The notes under the pieces are model-generated. The model saw only the letters and a program-made list of their open reading frames with translations. It was not told the DNA's origin and ran no database searches. From a virus (lineage: Duplodnaviria; Caudoviricetes), in the IMG/VR virus record IMGVR_UViG_2526164702_000004, positions 1 to 64,000 of that record: 64,000 nucleotides of DNA. One strand, 5' to 3'. Below, one piece after another: positions 32,297-51,826 of the stretch (its first letter is position 1; each line of letters begins with the position of its first letter). Made by a program: the position numbers and the translations under genes.

Positions 32297-32530
32297 TTGA
32301 TCAACATGGAACATTCTAAAGTTGAACCTATCGATCAAGTCGAAAGCACTGTGGCCGAGTGCCGGAAAATTTTAATCGAGTATATTAGATCCTCGGGAAC
32401 CTTGAGACAGATCGAAAAGTGGACTAAAAAATCTAATGGAAATATAGCCAACTATCTTAACGACAAGAAAAAAGTCCACGTTGAGACATTAATCAAGATT
32501 GCCAAACAGATCAGAGACAACAAAGAATAA
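32297..32530 (+). CDS. small HTH protein, distant relative of the 46.7-50.6 kb array
   Basis: LIEYIR and VETLIKIAKQI match array motifs. Confidence 0.6.
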   Translation: MINMEHSKVEPIDQVESTVAECRKILIEYIRSSGTLRQIEKWTKKSNGNIANYLNDKKKVHVETLIKIAKQIRDNKE

Positions 32531-44279: not shown

Positions 44280-45668
44280 ATGTCTACGTTCTTTGCTCTC
44301 GTAATTTTATTTGTTCTATTCTGTTTCCCGTTTCTATTATATTTCTATTACAAAAAAGTAAAACAATTCAATGAGCTATATAATAAGTATAAAGATATTA
44401 TTGATTTAGAAAAACATAAGTCAAATGTCATTAACGAGACCGATGATTTGATACGCGAAAGGAATCGCAAACTGAATGAAATACAAGTAGAGATTGATCA
44501 ACTAAGAAAAGATTATTTAGAAAAAAGACAATTATTTGAAAACCTAATTCGTGAAGTCGCAATTTATGAAGACAAGTCTGAGATTATAAGTCACGGTTTG
44601 TATAAACCTCATTTTGACTTTGATACTTCAGACGAATATAAAGAAGCACTTTTAGAGATAAGAGAATCTTGTAAAGAGATGATTAAATCCGAGACAGCAG
44701 CATCTGCTTCAGTTGCTTGGCATGTAAACGGAAGTTACACAGAAGGGAAAAAACAAACAAAACATTATATTAAGTTAATGCTCCGTGCATTTAATGGCGA
44801 ATGCGATGCAATGATCGCTGATGTACGTTGGAATAATATCTCAAAAATGGAAGAACGAATAGCTAAGGTTCATGATGCGATAAATAAATTAGGTGAAACA
44901 CATTATATAAAAATTACAAACGATTACTATAGGTTAAAACTACAAGAATTACAACTTACTCATGAATATAGAGATAAAATTTATCAAGAAAAACAGGAAC
45001 AAAAGAGGATCCAAGAACAAATTCGTGAAGAAGAAAAGGTTCAAAGAGAAATTGAAAAGGCGTTAAGAGATTCAGAAGACGAAGAAAAACGATACACTAA
45101 GGCTTTGGAACAGGCAAAAAAAGAACTGGAAAAAGCCCAGGGCGAACAGTTGCAATTGGTCCAAGCAAAAATGGAAGCTTTGCAAAAAGAATTAGAGAAT
45201 GCACAAAGCGCAAAACAAAGAGCCTTATCTTTAGCCCAACAAACAAAAGTAGGGCATGTATATGTAATATCTAATATAGGTTCGTTCGGAGAAAGTGTAT
45301 TTAAGGTGGGGATGACACGGCGATTAGATCCAATGGACCGTGTAAAGGAATTAGGAGATGCGTCTGTTCCGTTTGAATTTGACGTTCACGCAATTGTTTA
45401 TTCTGAAAATGCGCCTGAACTCGAAAAATTGCTTCATAAAAACTTTGATCATAAAAGAGTAAACCTTGTAAACAACCGAAAAGAATTTTTTGAAATTACT
45501 CTGGATGAGATAGAGCAAATTGTAAAAAAACATAATGGTGATGTGCAATTTACAAAAGCAGCTGAAGCAAGGGAATATCGAGAGTCTATGAAAATTAAAT
45601 TAAATCGTCAAAATACAAATGTATCTACAATGTCAAATGTCTTAGACTCCATACCGCAAAGTATATAG
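44280..45668 (+). CDS. membrane-anchored DUF4041 / T5orf172 GIY-YIG nuclease (PD-lambda-1/SNIPE-like)
   Basis: N-terminal TM; LMLRAFNGECD; GHVYVISNIGSFG...KVGMTRR; SVPFEFDVH. Confidence 0.85.
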   Translation: MSTFFALVILFVLFCFPFLLYFYYKKVKQFNELYNKYKDIIDLEKHKSNVINETDDLIRERNRKLNEIQVEIDQLRKDYLEKRQLFENLIREVAIYEDKSEIISHGLYKPHFDFDTSDEYKEALLEIRESCKEMIKSETAASASVAWHVNGSYTEGKKQTKHYIKLMLRAFNGECDAMIADVRWNNISKMEERIAKVHDAINKLGETHYIKITNDYYRLKLQELQLTHEYRDKIYQEKQEQKRIQEQIREEEKVQREIEKALRDSEDEEKRYTKALEQAKKELEKAQGEQLQLVQAKMEALQKELENAQSAKQRALSLAQQTKVGHVYVISNIGSFGESVFKVGMTRRLDPMDRVKELGDASVPFEFDVHAIVYSENAPELEKLLHKNFDHKRVNLVNNRKEFFEITLDEIEQIVKKHNGDVQFTKAAEAREYRESMKIKLNRQNTNVSTMSNVLDSIPQSI

Positions 45669-45761
45669 AAAACGATAAAATCTATTATGAAACTTATCGG
45701 AAAGTTTGCAGTTTCGAAAGTGAGAATTAGAGAAATACACTTGTAACAATTCAAACCATAC

Positions 45762-46157
45762 CTACTTTAAAAACGTTTCGATAATCGTCTTAATTTTCTT
45801 TAAGTCTTCTGGCTGTATCTTTACAAGTATCTCTGCAATCTCGCATAATGTAGGATTATTAATAATCTTACGGGATAGTATGATCCCTTTTTCAATCAGT
45901 TCTTTTTCTGCTTCTGTTACATTCAAAGGAGTTGTATTCTTTTCGGGTCCTATTCCTTTGTGTGTCCACTCTTTTCTAAATCCATACTTTAGTTCGATTA
46001 CGATAGTAATACGATCAGTCAAATCCCGTTTATTATTCTCGAGCTGACTTAAGAGCTCCTGACTGATTCCAATCGATTTCGCAAATTCGTCCTGGCTGAT
46101 TTTTTGCCCGGTTCCCTCTGTTCGTATGTATTTGATTCTTTCGCCTGGTGTGTTCAA
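45762..46157 (-). CDS. CI-like repressor
   Basis: ISQDEFAKSIGISQELLSQLENNKR; divergent from cro. Confidence 0.85.
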   Translation of the reverse strand: MNTPGERIKYIRTEGTGQKISQDEFAKSIGISQELLSQLENNKRDLTDRITIVIELKYGFRKEWTHKGIGPEKNTTPLNVTEAEKELIEKGIILSRKIINNPTLCEIAEILVKIQPEDLKKIKTIIETFLK

Positions 46158-46259
46158 ATAAATATTTCTCTTTAATAAAATTTACTTGTAAAATATTGCA
46201 TTGTAATACATGGTCATCCCAGCAATTAAGCACCACAACGCACTGACAGGAGAGATAAA

Positions 46260-46505
46260 TTGAGCGTCGCAAAAAATCAAGGGCGAATTTGGCCCAAAGG
46301 TGTTATGTCCCGTGAAGAGATTAAGACGGAGCTGCAGTTTTTAAATAAAACTTATGATGTGATTTCTCACGAAACAGGAATGTCGTACGACGTTGTCCGC
46401 GGAACGATTGCGGGAAGAAAACGAAATGCCGTCGTTCTTCAGTATCTTACGAATCTTGGCATCGATCACGGAAGAACCCCAAGCCCGAGCCGCAAGGCAA
46501 GCTAA
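46260..46505 (+). CDS. Cro-like HTH protein
   Basis: ISHETGMSYDVVRGTIAG; divergent from cI. Confidence 0.7.
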   Translation: MSVAKNQGRIWPKGVMSREEIKTELQFLNKTYDVISHETGMSYDVVRGTIAGRKRNAVVLQYLTNLGIDHGRTPSPSRKAS

Positions 46506-46560
46506 GTAATATTAGAAAAACATAAAACGCTTCGTGGGTTCCCGACACACAGAGGCAACG

Positions 46561-46737
46561 ATGGAAAATTCGCAGAACAGAGAGATAGAAAAAATTGAAT
46601 ACTTTTGGCAGTACAACAAGCACGGAATACAGCGGCCATTGTGTAGGGTACTGGCATTGTATCAGTGTGCTTATCTTCGGTACATGATCGATTGGTTCAG
46701 GCCGCTGGAAGTAAGAGAGAAAGTAGTAAGGACTTGA
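46561..46737 (+). CDS. small hypothetical early protein
   Basis: GAGG SD before ATG 46561; its stop overlaps the TTG of the first bridging ORF. Confidence 0.5.
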   Translation: MENSQNREIEKIEYFWQYNKHGIQRPLCRVLALYQCAYLRYMIDWFRPLEVREKVVRT

Positions 46738-46776
46738 GAGATTTACGGGATATAGCAAAGATGGAATTGAGAGATG
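46725..46776 (+). repeat. 52-bp leader, exact copy at 47121-47172
   Basis: agtaaggacttgagagatttacgggatatagcaaagatggaattgagagatg. Confidence 0.92.
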
Positions 46777-47031
46777 GCAATAGAAAAGAAATTGATAACG
46801 GAAGCAATAAAGCGACGTCGTCAAAATATGGACACAGAGGCGGCGGATCGAGAAATGCTTATTCAGTATATTCGTCAATTCGTGGATTCGCAACGTGGGA
46901 ATCAAAAACTTTTAGCCGAAGCAAGCTCTATTCCTCAGAACAAAATATCCAGTTTAATACGGGAGCGCAGCTTTTCACCCGGAATGGATACGATCATAAA
47001 GCTTGCCGAAACAATACAAAATATCCAGTAA
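46774..47031 (+). CDS. array HTH 1 (helix QNKISS)
   Basis: RGNQKLLAEASSIPQNKISSLIR..SPGM. Confidence 0.85.
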   Translation: MAIEKKLITEAIKRRRQNMDTEAADREMLIQYIRQFVDSQRGNQKLLAEASSIPQNKISSLIRERSFSPGMDTIIKLAETIQNIQ

Positions 47032-47073
47032 GTGGATATTATTTACTTGACTTATATCCATCTTGTGGATATT
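47020..47073 (+). promoter_or_regulatory. operator pair/promoter after HTH1: ATATCCA-N5-TGGATAT x2
   Basis: Sites 33 bp apart; TTGACT at 47047. Confidence 0.85.
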
Positions 47074-47169
47074 TAATCCCTCACAACAATACCCCAACCC
47101 TTAACCAAACAAGCGAAAGAAGTAAGGACTTGAGAGATTTACGGGATATAGCAAAGATGGAATTGAGAG

Positions 47170-47412
47170 ATGAAAAATATACACGATGTGATAACCAACC
47201 GAAAGAATTGTCTTCGGTCGGAAGCCGAAGAGAAAGAATATCTAATCGATTATATCCGGAAGTTTGTCGATGCCAAAAGGGGAAATCAAAAACTTTTAGC
47301 GGAAGCAAGTGGCATTCGTCAGTCAACAATCTCCAATCTAATACGCAATGCAGGACCATCGCCCGGAATGGAAGTCATCATAGCTCTTGCCGAAGAAATT
47401 CAAAAAATTTAA
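47170..47412 (+). CDS. array HTH 2 (helix QSTISN)
   Basis: Paralogue of HTH1. Confidence 0.85.
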   Translation: MKNIHDVITNRKNCLRSEAEEKEYLIDYIRKFVDAKRGNQKLLAEASGIRQSTISNLIRNAGPSPGMEVIIALAEEIQKI

Positions 47413-47459
47413 AGTTTAAATATTTAAATCTTGACAAATATTTAATTTTTAAATATATT
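47404..47459 (+). promoter_or_regulatory. operator pair/promoter after HTH2: ATTTA-N5-TAAAT x2
   Basis: TTGACA 47431-N17-TATATT 47454. Confidence 0.85.
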
Positions 47460-47465
47460 CCCCAC

Positions 47466-47576
47466 AACAATACCCCGATCCTTAACCAAAATATGGCCGC
47501 ATCTTTGTGCGCTCATGCAGTGTGAACTTTGTGTTGAGAGATTTAATGAGTGTGATAACAATGGAATTAAGAGATG
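47466..47576 (+). repeat. ~110-bp cassette leader; near-identical copies at ~47882-47992 and ~48307-48417
   Basis: caataccccgatccttaaccaaaatatggccgc...ggaatt(a/g)agagATG. Confidence 0.92.
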
Positions 47577-47831
47577 GCCACGAAAAAAGAAATGATCGAT
47601 CAGGCAATAGAACGCCGACAGCACTGTTTGAATACAAGCGAATCGGATCGTGCGCTTATGATAGAATATATTCGGGAATTTGTAGAACTGAAACGCGGAA
47701 ATCAAATTCTACTCGCACGGGAGAGTGGAATTCCTCAGTCCAAGATTTCGAATCTTCTCAATGGAACCGGCACATCTGCAGGAATGGAGACGTTGGTAAT
47801 CCTCGCACTTGCTGTAAAAAATATAACGTAG
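47574..47831 (+). CDS. array HTH 3 (helix QSKISN)
   Basis: Paralogue. Confidence 0.85.
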   Translation: MATKKEMIDQAIERRQHCLNTSESDRALMIEYIREFVELKRGNQILLARESGIPQSKISNLLNGTGTSAGMETLVILALAVKNIT

Positions 47832-47875
47832 CGTTATGTTTTTGCCTTGACAAATATATCGCTCAGGTATATATT
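47820..47875 (+). promoter_or_regulatory. operator pair/promoter after HTH3: AATATAAC-N5-GTTATGTT and AATATATC-N5-GGTATATA
   Basis: TTGACA 47847-N17-TATATT 47870. Confidence 0.8.
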
Positions 47876-47989
47876 AATCCCCACAATACCCCGATCCTTA
47901 ACCAAAATATGGCCGCATCTTTGTGCGCTCATGCAGTGTGAACTTTGTGTTGAGAGATTTAATGAGTGTGATAACAATGGAATTGAGAG

Positions 47990-48262
47990 ATGGCAAAAAA
48001 AGAAACGAAAGAGCAATCAATCGAAGAGATTATTGCACACAGGCGGAACTGTCTGGACACGGAAGAGTCAGACAAGGAAGCACTGACGGAGTACGTTCGC
48101 CAGTTTGCAAAAGCGAAGAGGGGAAACACAATTCTTCTTTCGCGCGAAAGTGGAATTCCTCAGTCCAAAATATCGAATCTATTAAACAAAACAGGATCAT
48201 CTCCTGGAATGGAAACTTTAATCATTCTTGCTCAAACTATAAAAAATATACCAACTCGGTAA
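47990..48262 (+). CDS. array HTH 4 (helix QSKISN)
   Basis: Paralogue. Confidence 0.85.
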   Translation: MAKKETKEQSIEEIIAHRRNCLDTEESDKEALTEYVRQFAKAKRGNTILLSRESGIPQSKISNLLNKTGSSPGMETLIILAQTIKNIPTR

Positions 48263-48300
48263 CATTTTTAATTGACAAATGTACCAAGCCGGTATATATT
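48245..48300 (+). promoter_or_regulatory. operator pair/promoter after HTH4: TACC-N5-GGTA x2
   Basis: TTGACA 48272-N17-TATATT 48295. Confidence 0.85.
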
Positions 48301-48414
48301 AATTCCCACAATACCCCGATCCTTAACCAAAATATGGCCGCATCTTTGTGCGCTCATGCAGTGTGAACTTTGTGTTGAGAGATTTAATGAGTGTGATAAC
48401 AATGGAATTGAGAG

Positions 48415-48678
48415 ATGGCAATAGAAAAAGAAACGATCGATCAGGCAATAGAACGCCGACAGCACTGTTTAGATACAAGCGAATCGGATCGTACACTTAT
48501 GATAGAATATATTCGGGAATTCGTAGAACTGAAGCGTGGAAACCAAAGACGTCTTGCAGAAGCAAGCAGTGTTCCGGAATCCAGAATATCCAATCTCTTA
48601 AAAAATACCGGTGTCAGTCCGGGGATAGAAATAATACTTATCCTTGCCCAAAATGCAAAAAAGTTATTATCGCAATAA
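48415..48678 (+). CDS. array HTH 5 (helix ESRISN)
   Basis: Paralogue. Confidence 0.85.
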   Translation: MAIEKETIDQAIERRQHCLDTSESDRTLMIEYIREFVELKRGNQRRLAEASSVPESRISNLLKNTGVSPGIEIILILAQNAKKLLSQ

Positions 48679-48714
48679 CTTTTTATCTTGACAAACTTAA
48701 TAAAACAATAAGTT
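48661..48714 (+). promoter_or_regulatory. operator pair/promoter after HTH5: AAGTTATT-N5-AATAACTT and AACTTAAT-N5-AATAAGTT
   Basis: TTGACA at 48688; the -10 is non-consensus. Confidence 0.8.
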
Positions 48715-48743
48715 TTATTCCTTACAATACCCCGACCAAAAAT

Positions 48744-48768
48744 AAAAAAGCCCGGCGGCAACCGGGCT
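48744..48768 (-). terminator. intrinsic terminator oriented against the operon
   Basis: A6 followed by GCCCGG-N6-CCGGGC on the + strand. Confidence 0.55.
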
Positions 48769-48851
48769 CCGAGGTAAACTTACGTTTAACACCTAAGCGT
48801 TTTTTATCTCCTCTTTTATTTGCGGTCAACCAAAAAATTTAGGAGATACCT

Positions 48852-49046
48852 ATGACCCCAAGATACTACCTGTCAGACCGTGCCCGGATTGCGTTTGAAT
48901 GTTTCGAGATCCGCAACGGATACAAACCAAACCACAAAGAGCAAGTTGAGATATTGCGAAACGAAGGGTTTAACCCGGCAACAATTGCTTTTTTTATGCA
49001 ATGTGTTCACACAACTCCCAGGCATTCCAGTGAGGTGTTCGCATGA
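48852..49046 (+). CDS. small hypothetical early protein
   Basis: AGGAGA SD; 64 aa. Confidence 0.6.
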   Translation: MTPRYYLSDRARIAFECFEIRNGYKPNHKEQVEILRNEGFNPATIAFFMQCVHTTPRHSSEVFA

Positions 49047-49091
49047 AGGCATTGATAAAAATCAAACAAAGTCCGATAATGGATAGGAGAC

Positions 49092-49352
49092 ATGTCGAAG
49101 AAAGAGACGATAAAACAAATTATCGAACACAGACGGAAGTGTGTGGATACAGAAGAGTCAGACAAGGAAGCGCTGACAGAATATATTCGGGAATTTGCAA
49201 AAGCGAAGAGGGGAAATACAATTCTTCTTTCGCGCGAGAGTGGAGTTCCGGATGCCAAAATCTCAAACCTGTTAAATCAAAGTGGATTCCCTCCAGGAAT
49301 GGAAATAATTTTAAAGCTTGCCGAAACAATACAAAAACTACAAAATCTATAG
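49092..49352 (+). CDS. array HTH 6 (helix DAKISN)
   Basis: Paralogue; AGGAGA SD. Confidence 0.85.
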   Translation: MSKKETIKQIIEHRRKCVDTEESDKEALTEYIREFAKAKRGNTILLSRESGVPDAKISNLLNQSGFPPGMEIILKLAETIQKLQNL

Positions 49353-49388
49353 ATTTAGTCCTTGACAATTCTACAGAAACTATAGCTT
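49335..49388 (+). promoter_or_regulatory. operator pair/promoter after HTH6: CTACA-N5-TATAG x2
   Basis: TTGACA at 49362; 33-bp spacing. Confidence 0.8.
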
Positions 49389-49391
49389 ATA

Positions 49392-49593
49392 GCACCTCAT
49401 ACAACTTAGGAGGTGCTATATGAAACAGTTGAGTGAATCAACTCAGTTTCCGATAATGGATGAGAGACATGTCGAAGAAAGAGACGATAAAACAAATTAT
49501 CGAACACAGACGGAAGTGTGTGGATTCGGAGCAAGAACACCGCGAAGCGTTAATAGAATACATTCGAGAGTTTGTGCGGGCGAAACGCGGGAA
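49392..49593 (+). repeat. ~200-bp leader plus 5' HTH repeat, copy 377 bp downstream; 25-bp core also at 50146
   Basis: gcacctcatacaacttaggaggtgc... direct comparison. Confidence 0.9.
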
Positions 49594-49729
49594 CACAGCT
49601 TTACTTACTCAACAAACCGGCATTCCCGGATCACGAATATCCCATCTTGTAAACAACACAGGCCGTCCTCCTGGAATGGATGGACTCCTAACTTTAGCCG
49701 AAGCAATAACAAAACTGCACAAAGTGTAA
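49469..49729 (+). CDS. array HTH 7 (helix GSRISH)
   Basis: Paralogue; start set at MSKK by analogy with HTH6. Confidence 0.85.
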   Translation: MSKKETIKQIIEHRRKCVDSEQEHREALIEYIREFVRAKRGNTALLTQQTGIPGSRISHLVNNTGRPPGMDGLLTLAEAITKLHKV

Positions 49730-49765
49730 ATTTATTCCTTGACAATGTTGCACATTGTGCAACAT
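49712..49765 (+). promoter_or_regulatory. operator pair/promoter after HTH7: TGCA-N5-TG(C/T)A
   Basis: Perfect ATGTTGCA-N5-TGCAACAT; TTGACA at 49739. Confidence 0.85.
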
Positions 49766-49845
49766 TCTGCACCTCATACAACTTAGGAGGTGCTATATGA
49801 AACAGTTGAGTGAATCAACTCAGTTTCCGATAATGGATGAGAGAC

Positions 49846-50106
49846 ATGTCGAAGAAAGAGACGATAAAACAAATTATCGAACACAGACGGAAGTGTGTGG
49901 ATTCGGAGCAAGAACACCGCGAAGCGTTAATAGAATACATTCGAGAGTTTGTAGAACAGAAACGAGGAAACACAGTTCTTCTTTCACAACAAACAGGAAT
50001 TCCAGTTTCGCGTATCTCCAATCTGGTCAACAACTCTGGCCGACCTCCGGGCATGGACGGACTTCTAACGCTTGCGGAGGTAATTCAAAAAGTACACAAT
50101 GTTTAG
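49846..50106 (+). CDS. array HTH 8 (helix VSRISN)
   Basis: Paralogue; 5' half identical to HTH7. Confidence 0.85.
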   Translation: MSKKETIKQIIEHRRKCVDSEQEHREALIEYIREFVEQKRGNTVLLSQQTGIPVSRISNLVNNSGRPPGMDGLLTLAEVIQKVHNV

Positions 50107-50142
50107 ATTTATTTATTGACAAAAATAAACATTGTGTAGATA
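50089..50142 (+). promoter_or_regulatory. operator pair/promoter after HTH8: consensus TACA-N5-TGTA
   Basis: TTGACA at 50116; one mismatch per site. Confidence 0.7.
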
Positions 50143-50173
50143 TTCGCACCTCATACAACTTAGGAGGTGCAGC

Positions 50174-50311
50174 GTGAACCCCGACACAGACCACCAAATG
50201 GACGCACTACGTAATATCGTCCAACTATCTCAAGACGTGCAGGCTGTCCGTAACTGGATTGATGCGAGTGAGCAAATTGCAGAAACCCCGTTAACCGAGG
50301 TGGAGCAATGA
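50174..50311 (+). CDS. small hypothetical early protein (45 aa)
   Basis: AGGAGG SD, GTG start; stop-start overlaps at both ends. Confidence 0.55.
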   Translation: MNPDTDHQMDALRNIVQLSQDVQAVRNWIDASEQIAETPLTEVEQ

Positions 50312-50356
50312 ATTGCTTGAGTAAAATCTTAGAAATTCCGAAAATAGGAATAACAC

Positions 50357-50635
50357 ATGTCTTTAACAGACGAACAAATAAAAAAGACGATTCCCGCAAT
50401 TATTCGTCAAAGACGAGAGAGTATCTCAAGAGAAGACATCGACAAACAGATGTTAGTCGATTATATCCGATACTTTGTCAATTTAAAACGTGGAAATGCG
50501 GCTCTTCTTGTAAAGGAGACAAAATTTCCTTCTGGAAATTTATCTCGTCTTATTTCCGGCGAGGGTGCTCAACCGTCCTTCGAGCGAATTCTTTCTATCG
50601 CCGAAACTGTTCAAATTCTGCTAAAAAAGCAGTAA
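50357..50635 (+). CDS. array HTH 9 (helix SGNLSR, most divergent)
   Basis: LVDYIRYFVNLKRGNAALL; AGGA SD. Confidence 0.8.
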   Translation: MSLTDEQIKKTIPAIIRQRRESISREDIDKQMLVDYIRYFVNLKRGNAALLVKETKFPSGNLSRLISGEGAQPSFERILSIAETVQILLKKQ

Positions 50636-50671
50636 TAATTCTTGACAAAAAACCTTCTATAATAGCAGTTT
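50615..50671 (+). promoter_or_regulatory. operator pair/promoter after HTH9: CT(G/T)CT-N5-AGCAG
   Basis: TTGACA at 50642; spacing is 36 bp rather than 33. Confidence 0.55.
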
Positions 50672-50699
50672 TCTTTTGCTGCTTTAAGGAGGCATTGTC

Positions 50700-51017
50700 A
50701 TGACATTCAAAGAAGATCAGCAAATGAGCCAGTTAAAAAAACTCATTAGTGAGTCCTCGATAAGCTTGTTGTCTTTGTCGGTTAACGGGATCTCACTTGA
50801 TGACGTTATGCGCGTGGAAAAACAAAAACAGAACGTAAAAGAATCTCGTGCCCGTCTCCGTGCTTTGTTTGTGAGTTACAGACAGACAATCAGGTATCTC
50901 AAAGGGCAAGTCAAAGAGCGTGATGAGGCACTCATGGTGCTCCGTGCGGAGACGGATGCAATGGCGGACGTGATTACGGACATCAAAAAATCGTACGGCT
51001 TCAAGGCGGTGGTGTGA
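50700..51017 (+). CDS. coiled-coil hypothetical protein
   Basis: AAGGAGG SD. Confidence 0.6.
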   Translation: MTFKEDQQMSQLKKLISESSISLLSLSVNGISLDDVMRVEKQKQNVKESRARLRALFVSYRQTIRYLKGQVKERDEALMVLRAETDAMADVITDIKKSYGFKAVV

Positions 51018-51826
51018 TGGAAGAAAATTCAATTGTAAGAGCAGATAATCCTGTTGAGCAGATGCGTCGGGCGACTGATGTCGCTGGTGCGTGTCGTGAG
51101 ATAGTGAACCGAACCGTGCAAGAAATCCAGGGTAAAAAATACATTAGAGTTGAGGGTTGGCAGGCAATATGTAACGCTCACGGTTGTGCGGCCTCGTCTG
51201 GATCTGTAGAGAGAGTCGAGGGTGGATTTCGCGCAATTGGTCAGATCCGTAGGCGATCAGATGGTGTCGTGATTGCCGAGGCAGAGGGCTTCATTGGTGA
51301 CGACGAAAGTTCTTGGAGTGGTAGGCCAGAATACGCAAAAAGAGCAATGGCCCAAACCCGAGCGATTTCACGGGCTTGTAGATCTGCATTTGCGCATGTT
51401 GTAGTATTAATAGACGAAAATCTATTGACTACACCGGCTGAAGAAGTTCCGGCATCGGACGCGAATCCCTCAGCCGAAACTTCAAAAAAATCTAATACAA
51501 CTAAACCTACTGAAGTATCGCCCGAAACTCCTATCGGAAAACCGGCCTCAAAAGAACACAAGGAAGCGTTTTTTAAGACTAACGGTAAAGCGACGTTTAT
51601 CTCGAATTTTGGAGTTGAGATACTCAAGATCGACGGCACGTATCTCTACGTTCCAGTCGGTAGTTATAAAAAGCAGCAGGCTGGACAACCGATCGATTTA
51701 ACGCCTCCAGCGAGTTCGCCTAAAACCAACTCGGAAAAACCTGTCAATGGAACGGCTACTGAACTCGCTGGAGTAGGGGCAGGAACAAAGCCGGCTGTCA
51801 GTGATGACGAGGAGGATTTATTCTAA
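51014..51826 (+). CDS. putative single-strand annealing recombinase (Rad52/Sak-like)
   Basis: KKYIRVEGWQ...AMAQTRAISRA; Pro/Ser-rich tail with acidic C-terminus DDEEDLF. Confidence 0.55.
   Translation: MMEENSIVRADNPVEQMRRATDVAGACREIVNRTVQEIQGKKYIRVEGWQAICNAHGCAASSGSVERVEGGFRAIGQIRRRSDGVVIAEAEGFIGDDESSWSGRPEYAKRAMAQTRAISRACRSAFAHVVVLIDENLLTTPAEEVPASDANPSAETSKKSNTTKPTEVSPETPIGKPASKEHKEAFFKTNGKATFISNFGVEILKIDGTYLYVPVGSYKKQQAGQPIDLTPPASSPKTNSEKPVNGTATELAGVGAGTKPAVSDDEEDLF

Follow-up and report, generated by a model that had tools for sequence, protein, structure and literature searches.

Nested helix-turn-helix genes in an open second frame

The window analyzed here comprises the first 64,000 nucleotides (nt) of the IMG/VR virus record IMGVR_UViG_2526164702_000004. 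Between positions 46774 and 50635 it carries a row of nine small genes for helix-turn-helix (HTH) proteins, all of which are nested wholly inside longer open reading frames (ORFs) lying in their -1 frame. These longer ORFs, termed bridge ORFs below, start 40, 436, 52, 52, 52, 49, 49, 49 and 49 nt upstream of the ATG codons of the successive HTH genes, each offset being 1 modulo 3. Together with two small genes and the flanking genes they form a chain that spans 46561 to 51826 and whose stop/start junctions comprise eleven 4-nt overlaps, one 9-nt gap and one 1-nt overlap. The overlaps are of the TTGA type at 46734, of the GTGA type at 47522, 47938, 48363 and 50174, and of the ATGA type at 49043, 49420, 49797, 50308 and 50700; the sole gap (48843-48851) is preceded by a TAG embedded in an AGGAG Shine-Dalgarno (SD) sequence, and all but 9 nt of the 46561-51017 region is covered by the chain. 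Stop and start codons thus overlap or lie a few nt apart on the same strand, the arrangement expected for termination-reinitiation, and most junctions in the related loci are of the same type as those of the window. A preliminary description of the region had given the coordinates, offsets and junctions from the 46561 to the 50700 gene, all of which we reproduced exactly. The linkage that it drew across 46561-51017 stands; the end that it gave to the chain does not, as a further GTGA overlap at 51014 and the 1-nt overlap at 51826 carry the chain onward.

The -1 frame of the nine HTH genes contains no stop codon, as against 4-10 stops per gene in the +1 frame. When synonymous codons are permuted gene by gene, 2.2-7.2 stops are expected in the -1 frame and the probability of finding none ranges from 0.05 to <5e-5 per gene; when codons are sampled from the usage of the phage itself this probability is at most 4e-4 per gene. 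The alternative-frame ORFs are accordingly longer than synonymous permutation predicts, as in dual-coding gene pairs. The long ORFs of the phage that serve as background have 9.4 -1-frame stops per 100 codons, and a natural control is provided by a distant tenth paralog of the same protein family (phrog_2136) at 32306-32530, which lies outside the array among other genes and has seven stops in its -1 frame. The preliminary description had considered chance openness unlikely and had named synonymous-codon shuffling as the way to check it; the shuffling confirms the depletion of stops, and the open -1 frame is real and far beyond chance.

The same openness extends to the relatives of the array. 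We collected 15 further IMG/VR loci with arrays of 2-7 cassettes, which with the window yield 80 HTH copies in 56 distinct nucleotide sequences, and five more plasmid loci, including one from L. kirschneri and a single-cassette plasmid of L. mayottensis, which contribute a further 23 copies and 14 sequences not seen before. A -1 stop is absent from all 103 copies (70 distinct sequences in at least 17 subfamilies, from 21 elements, the window included), whereas their +1 frame has 2-11 stops; the copies come from elements of L. interrogans, L. noguchii, L. kirschneri and L. mayottensis. Frequent stops in homologous cassettes, which the preliminary description had set out as the result that would speak against it, are hence not seen in this sample. 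Among the 56 sequences, the +1 frame is never free of stops, other frames on either strand are stop-free in at most two sequences, and the permutation probability of an open -1 frame has a median of 0.003. At 80% amino acid identity these sequences fall into 17 groups, which are close to independent trials because synonymous sites are saturated between them (dS ~1.9). The clearest expression of the constraint is found at the codon junctions: T in the third codon position (T3) before codons beginning with AA, AG or GA occurs in 0 of 1413 cases, where about 360 would be expected from per-amino-acid T usage, and T3 precedes all other codons in 32% of 3430 cases. The avoidance is total in every third of the gene, with 625 junctions in the first third and 788 in the last two.

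The HTH family itself is tiny: a search of 1.8 billion proteins at E <=1e-3 yields only 19 representative clusters. In its distant members, which are single-copy genes from metagenomes, the -1 frame contains 2, 9 and 18 stops. As these homologs and the 32306 paralog carry stops, the open frame is a trait of the cassette lineage and not of the protein family.

Genomic setting and architecture of the cassettes

Judging by its sequence matches, the element is a complete 77-kb plasmid-prophage of Leptospira, of the lcp3 kind. The virus record is 76,984 bp long, complete, and ends in direct terminal repeats; the named HTH homologs are from L. interrogans and L. noguchii; and matches to the array region are found on ten Leptospira plasmids, including lcp3 from L. 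interrogans 56609. The lcp3 replicon has been described as a plasmid prophage inducible by mitomycin (PMC4338851). No match was recovered from the INPHARED phage collection by blastn or tblastn, no relative was found among the GTDB species genomes, and an Rfam search of 45500-51500 returned nothing meaningful. The array sits in the early region of the element, where a CI-like gene and a gene in the cro position are followed by the array and then by the phrog_6874, phrog_19042 and Mu Gam-like genes (Table 1). The nine HTH genes are 80-92 codons long and match phrog_2136 over their full length (E 1e-31 to 1e-41), and they give weak matches to Pfam HTH_3; units 7 and 8 are near-duplicates, as are units 3 and 5. 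The ORF at the head of the chain has no PHROG match. In addition, a strong GC hairpin followed by a T-run at 48747-48770, inside bridge ORF 4, has the form of a minus-strand terminator, and there is no minus-strand gene nearby to its right.

Table 1. Positions of the chain members, the genes preceding them and two example motifs, in window coordinates (L015 is a related locus)
Feature	Position	Strand	Remarks
CI-like HTH gene	45762-46157	-	Pfam HTH_3
Small gene in cro position	46260-46505		phrog_7494
Small conserved ORF, chain head	46561..46737	+	58 aa; TGA overlaps TTG of bridge ORF 1; homolog at L015 5087-5287
Bridge ORF 1	46734..47525	+	263 aa from TTG; holds HTH1 (46774-47031), a spacer with P1, and HTH2 (47170-47412); phrog_8220 match
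Bridge ORF 2	47522..47941	+	139 aa; GTGA coupling; holds HTH3 (47574-47831)
Bridge ORF 3	47938..48366	+	142 aa; GTGA coupling; holds HTH4 (47990-48262)
Bridge ORF 4	48363..48842	+	159 aa; holds HTH5 (48415-48678); terminal TAG within SD of next gene
phrog_7667 gene	48852..49046	+	64 aa; ordinary chain link after the sole 9-nt gap
Bridge ORF 5	49043..49423	+	126 aa; GAGGTG SD and ATG; holds HTH6 (49092-49352)
Bridge ORF 6	49420..49800	+	126 aa; AGGAGGTG SD and ATG; holds HTH7 (49469-49729)
Bridge ORF 7	49797..50177	+	126 aa; AGGAGGTG SD and ATG; holds HTH8 (49846-50106)
Small ORF, chain link	50174..50311	+	45 aa; duplicated N-terminus of phrog_6874 gene
Bridge ORF 8	50308..50703	+	131 aa; GGTGGAG SD and ATG; holds HTH9 (50357-50635)
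phrog_6874 gene	50700..51017	+	105 aa; first gene past the array; start overlaps bridge ORF 8 stop (ATGA)
Promoter-like site P1, example	47847..47875	+	TTGACA-17-TATATT; inside bridge ORF
Leader motif, example (candidate promoter P2 or initiation region)	49429..49457	+	TTGAGT-17-GATAAT; within first 40 nt of bridge ORF

Each HTH stop codon is followed within 3-18 nt by a TTGACA or TTGACT hexamer, behind which lie a 17-nt spacer and a -10-like hexamer. The TTGACW sequence occurs exactly nine times in 46500-51100 (47047, 47431, 47847, 48272, 48688, 49362, 49739, 50116 and 50642), and these sites look like operator-controlled promoters, one per cassette. Their 17-nt spacers are cassette-specific and often palindromic, as exemplified by ATGTTGCACATTGTGCAACAT at 49745. 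In units 1-5 the promoter-like sites are directly followed by C-rich, G-poor tracts of 60 nt (C 16-20, G 2-7; positions 47050-47130, 47430-47510, 47840-47930 and 48270-48350), the composition of which is reminiscent of rut sites; a Rho homolog is present in L. interrogans (PMC5243855).

The bridge ORFs read through both the TTGACW sites and the spacers between cassettes. Continuity in this respect holds for all 28 pairs of directly adjacent cassettes, the bridge ORF either reaching the next bridge start or running on in frame, and dinucleotide shuffles of the spacers preserve continuity in 0-27% of trials per spacer. Spacer length follows the same register, being 2 modulo 3 where there is one coupling junction, 0 modulo 3 where there is none and 1 modulo 3 where a small ORF adds a second, and the length differences inside spacer types (152/158/161 and 111/114/123) are multiples of 3. 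Three junctions lack the 4-nt overlap to a long upstream ORF and show a 44- or 62-nt overlap or an 18-nt gap in its place.

A second conserved motif, of the form TTGAGA-17-GATAAT with the variants AACAAT, AAAGAT and TACAAT, ends 11 nt 5' of every HTH ATG. It spans -40 to -9 relative to that ATG, for instance at 49429-49460 and 47534-47565, and in 16 leader clusters the T at -12 and the G at -10 are invariant, with A at -13 and -14 in 15 of the 16. This motif may act as a second promoter, with a resulting leader of 4-5 nt, or else form part of the initiation region or a weak ribosome-binding site (RBS); the primary transcription start sites of L. interrogans mostly fall 0-10 nt from the start codon (PMC5243855). 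The leader RNAs fold no better than their shuffles (z -0.95 to +0.31), and an RNA-unfolding model of coupling gains no support from leaders that lack significant structure. The conserved leader of units 3-5 also contains a third small ORF (MQCELCVERFNEC...) in the +1 frame, at 47515-47595, 47931-48086 and 48356-48424, which ends 7-19 nt past the HTH ATG in units 3 and 5 and at 48086 in unit 4; the three leaders are too similar to each other for a constraint test on it.

The two nested frames differ in their start signals, with strong SDs at most bridge starts and weak ones at HTH starts. The bridge starts of the ATGA type lie 5-7 nt past AGGAGGTG, GGGAGGG, AAGGAGG, GAGGTG or GGTGGAG in many unrelated contexts, and pairing with the anti-SD has a median duplex energy of -7.75 kcal/mol at bridge starts versus -3.7 at HTH starts. 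The strong SDs that the preliminary description had placed before the bridge starts at 49420 and 49797 are indeed there, AGGAGGTG lying upstream of both ATGs. HTH7 and HTH8 have an extra in-frame ATG 9 nt upstream of their starts (49460 and 49837).

Comparison of the loci also illuminates how the array is assembled. The related locus L015 has only two cassettes, both again nested in bridge ORFs, and where no cassette is present its phrog_6874 gene is intact (128 aa; L015 6329-6715), an indication that the cassette was acquired through recombination at the 5' end of this gene. Taken with the duplicated phrog_6874 N-terminus in the window, the intact gene suggests that cassettes come and go at ATGA junctions and leave the chain unbroken. 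Second HTH arrays occur downstream of the phrog_6874 gene in three other loci (L011 1655-2661, L012 7235-8241 and L014 7595-8601); these have leader types of their own, with a GGGAGGG SD and the bridge ATG at -25 or -49, and are again fully nested in -1 ORFs.

The bridge-frame peptides and a proposed role in ribosome transit

The openness of the bridge frame is not accompanied by conservation of the peptide that it specifies. Among representatives of the 17 subfamilies, identity in the bridge frame is 25.0% versus a permutation null of 20.9% obtained with a swap sampler, and the stop-ridden +1 frame of the same representatives gives 25.8% versus 21.9%; because the +1 frame shows an equal excess, the excess is attributable to residual ancestry. 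In close pairs, for which the HTH frame has a dN of ~0.05 and a dS of ~0.27, the bridge frame shows a dNN/dNS of 1.1-1.25 and a dSN/dSS of 0.73 (confidence interval 0.32-2.1). Such OLGenie-like ratios are biased by the HTH constraint and were used solely against the +1 control (0.65-0.71), above which no signal of purifying selection on the alternative-frame amino acids emerges, within limited power. The poor conservation that the preliminary description had ascribed to the bridge peptides is borne out by both measures. An alignment of 19 bridge ORFs retains only two invariant residues, L4 and D108, and these correspond to the TTG of the TTGAGA motif and the GAC of TTGACA, respectively. No Pfam match was found for the bridge ORFs, and AlphaFold2 provided no confident fold for bridge ORF 6 with 19 aligned sequences (predicted local distance difference test score 44, predicted template modeling score 0.15). 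The bridge peptides are basic and abound in S/T/N, which is what K/E/R-rich codons are expected to give when read out of frame.

These data bear directly on the possibility that the bridge ORFs specify real overprinted proteins, which would have to be fast-evolving, basic and probably disordered and to work by composition or a short motif, for example in nucleic-acid binding or as partners of the HTH proteins. Their length (126-263 aa), their conserved openness and the good SD and ATG ahead of them are compatible with this, as are their isoelectric points of 9.0-10.6 and their presence in databases, where they are represented by phrog_8220, an NCBI nr protein on lcp3 and a RefSeq coding sequence in the plasmid pLiSL32. 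However, conservation does not exceed that of a non-coding frame, the invariant residues are those of promoter hexamers, and the C-terminal part derives from promoter/operator DNA that varies among cassettes. With neither a recognizable domain nor a confident fold to set against this, we consider such a protein function rather unlikely.

Since the stop avoidance is specific to one frame, we hold it very probable that the bridge ORFs are translated; we know of no other cause of frame-specific stop avoidance than translation of that frame. Four RNA data sets labeled with the same species gave no reads over 46000-51100, which carries no information on expression. As for what such translation might accomplish, our preferred reading, in which we have about even confidence, is that the bridge ORFs serve as carrier lanes, by which ribosome cover and coupling are maintained over the repressor/operator cassettes. 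In each cassette, the second ORF starts ~25-52 nt 5' of the HTH ATG, either at a strong SD and ATG or by overlap with the preceding ORF, crosses the whole HTH gene and the promoter/operator spacer, and stops where the start codon of the following ORF lies. Its openness and the register of its ends are maintained by selection, which leaves the amino acid sequence free. On read-through transcripts heading for the recombination and replication genes, ribosomes would pass from ORF to ORF through termination-reinitiation in the carrier frame, such that 4.4 kb would stay ribosome-covered and Rho-dependent polarity and loss of coupling would be avoided, polarity being known to arise on exposure of untranslated RNA (PMC12548453). 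The weakly initiated HTH genes would stay untranslated on these transcripts. We favor ribosome transit as the selected trait because openness and register are conserved and the sequence is not, and because the bridge ORFs end exactly at the next start. The unstructured leaders, the C-rich, G-poor tracts of units 1-5, and the Rho homolog and frequent short mRNA leaders of the host are in keeping with it. The preliminary description had proposed that it is the act of translation that matters, and the open yet unconserved frame favors this part of its proposal; damping of HTH initiation, which it had listed among the possible roles, is indirectly disfavored as the sole one because the frame is open through the last third of the gene and the spacer as well.

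Several points weigh against the carrier function. The bridge starts of window units 1-5 are TTG or GTG codons without an SD, so that these units would rest wholly on reinitiation at such codons. Several downstream genes, such as the one at 50700, have a strong SD of their own and need no coupling to initiate, and with a promoter-like site in each cassette, most downstream mRNA may come from transcripts other than read-through ones. Further, ORFs of ~85 codons give the tests of peptide constraint little power, and a disordered basic protein that acts through its composition (isoelectric point 9-10.6) could still be at work.

More tentatively, the cassettes may be seen as plug-in regulatory modules bounded by ATGA, each of which would place a short-leader or leaderless HTH gene, transcribed from a promoter of its own directly ahead of the ATG, and an operator-controlled promoter under a sequence-free carrier ORF, with the promoter setting the frame that is used. 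Short transcripts would then yield the HTH protein, and longer or read-through transcripts would load ribosomes at the bridge RBS and cross the cassette with no repressor made; the carrier ribosomes could possibly also aid the RNA polymerase past operator-bound repressors.

A different use of the same geometry would be control of HTH synthesis itself. Ribosomes initiating at the bridge RBS could occlude the HTH start 25-52 nt downstream in the style of an overlapping upstream ORF, which would restrict HTH synthesis to the gene's own short-leader transcript or to conditions of low bridge initiation. The strong bridge SD set against the weak HTH SD fits this, and so does the TTGAGA-17-GATAAT-like motif, which as a promoter would give a leader of <10 nt, a length common in L. 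interrogans mRNAs (PMC5243855). Nevertheless, a short overlapping ORF would suffice for occlusion, and the absence of stops from the 788 risky junctions of the last two thirds of the gene and from the spacers up to the next start is left unexplained. As the main role, occlusion is hence rather unlikely, though it probably contributes alongside the carrier function.

Programmed -1 frameshifting out of the HTH frame, which would produce C-terminally extended HTH variants in the manner of the IS3/IS1 OrfA-OrfB or phage tail chaperone G/GT systems, has the right geometry, with an HTH region followed by a -1-frame extension, and some copies even contain heptamers of the A AAA AAG type. However, a heptamer is found in only 28 of the 56 sequences, at scattered columns, with none conserved; stop avoidance is already complete within the initial third of the gene; and the -1 frame comes with an upstream SD and ATG of its own. 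As neither a conserved X XXY YYZ heptamer nor, in the leaders, a stimulatory structure is seen, we reject frameshifting, which has very little probability left. Lastly, despite the near-duplicate units 7/8 and 3/5, an open frame arising as a by-product of composition, codon usage or recent-duplicate ancestry is refuted by the composition-preserving permutation within genes, the saturated dS across the 17 subfamilies, the restriction of openness to one of five alternative frames, the lack of -1 stops in all 103 copies, the absence of risky T3 junctions, and the many stops in background genes and distant homologs, and its probability is negligible.

Relation to known systems and significance

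Same-strand nested genes are familiar from phages, as in the lambda Rz/Rz1 pair and the phiX174 B gene within A. The Leptospira cassettes resemble them in using two frames of one strand and in having an over-long alternative ORF that is kept open in relatives. They differ in that it is the old conserved gene, that of the HTH protein, which is nested, in that the overlapping ORF shows no amino acid constraint and spans promoter/operator DNA, and in that nine such units stand side by side here and 103 occur in the family as a whole. Overprinted genes in general have been reviewed elsewhere (PMC8227390, PMC6188560). The 4-nt overlaps that link the ORFs of the chain, and that are conserved in relatives, are akin to the termination-reinitiation coupling known at ATGA and GTGA junctions (PMC12548453). 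The partners in that case are ordinary protein genes, whereas in the chain from 46561 to 51017 eight of the 12 links read other genes out of frame. In regulatory leader and upstream ORFs it is translation that matters and not the peptide, and they can gate Rho-dependent termination. The bridge ORFs are comparable in being apparently selected for ribosome occupancy, in leaving their sequence largely free and in overlapping the start of the regulated gene. Yet leader ORFs, usually of <50 codons, terminate ahead of the main gene or shortly after its start, whereas the bridge ORFs, with 126-263 codons, do not end near the HTH start and run through the whole gene and the next promoter to the next gene. 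The IS3/IS1 OrfA-OrfB pair likewise has a small HTH gene overlapped by a -1-frame ORF; unlike it, the cassettes have no conserved slippery site and no transposase domain, and their -1 ORF starts upstream of the HTH gene.

The overlap was not described in the Leptospira plasmid and prophage papers turned up by our literature searches, and it is of consequence for annotation, as RefSeq, GenBank and PHROGs disagree on the frame to call. RefSeq mostly calls the HTH frame and departs from this in pLiSL32; in locus L033 (2970-3425; NZ_CP092677.1) it has the bridge frame as a 151-aa hypothetical protein and not the nested HTH gene.

Long ORFs that overlap on the same strand are commonly contested in bacteria and phages, since the signs of selection on them are weak. 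In the cassettes the signal is near-absolute (0 of 1413 junctions, 103 of 103 copies, four Leptospira species), and the unconstrained peptide furnishes a built-in negative control that separates selection for openness from selection for a product. The combination points to ribosome transit, be it through coupling, anti-polarity or start-site occlusion, as the trait under selection along these 4.4 kb, and provides a rare and clean case of an ORF that is probably kept for being translated and not for what it encodes. It also bears on the wiring of repressor/operator cassette arrays in the temperate phage-plasmids of a poorly tractable spirochaete. If the cassettes are plug-in modules of the kind outlined above, they would represent a novel means by which an operon can continue across regulator genes inserted into it, as well as a natural example of an ORF maintained for ribosome traffic alone.

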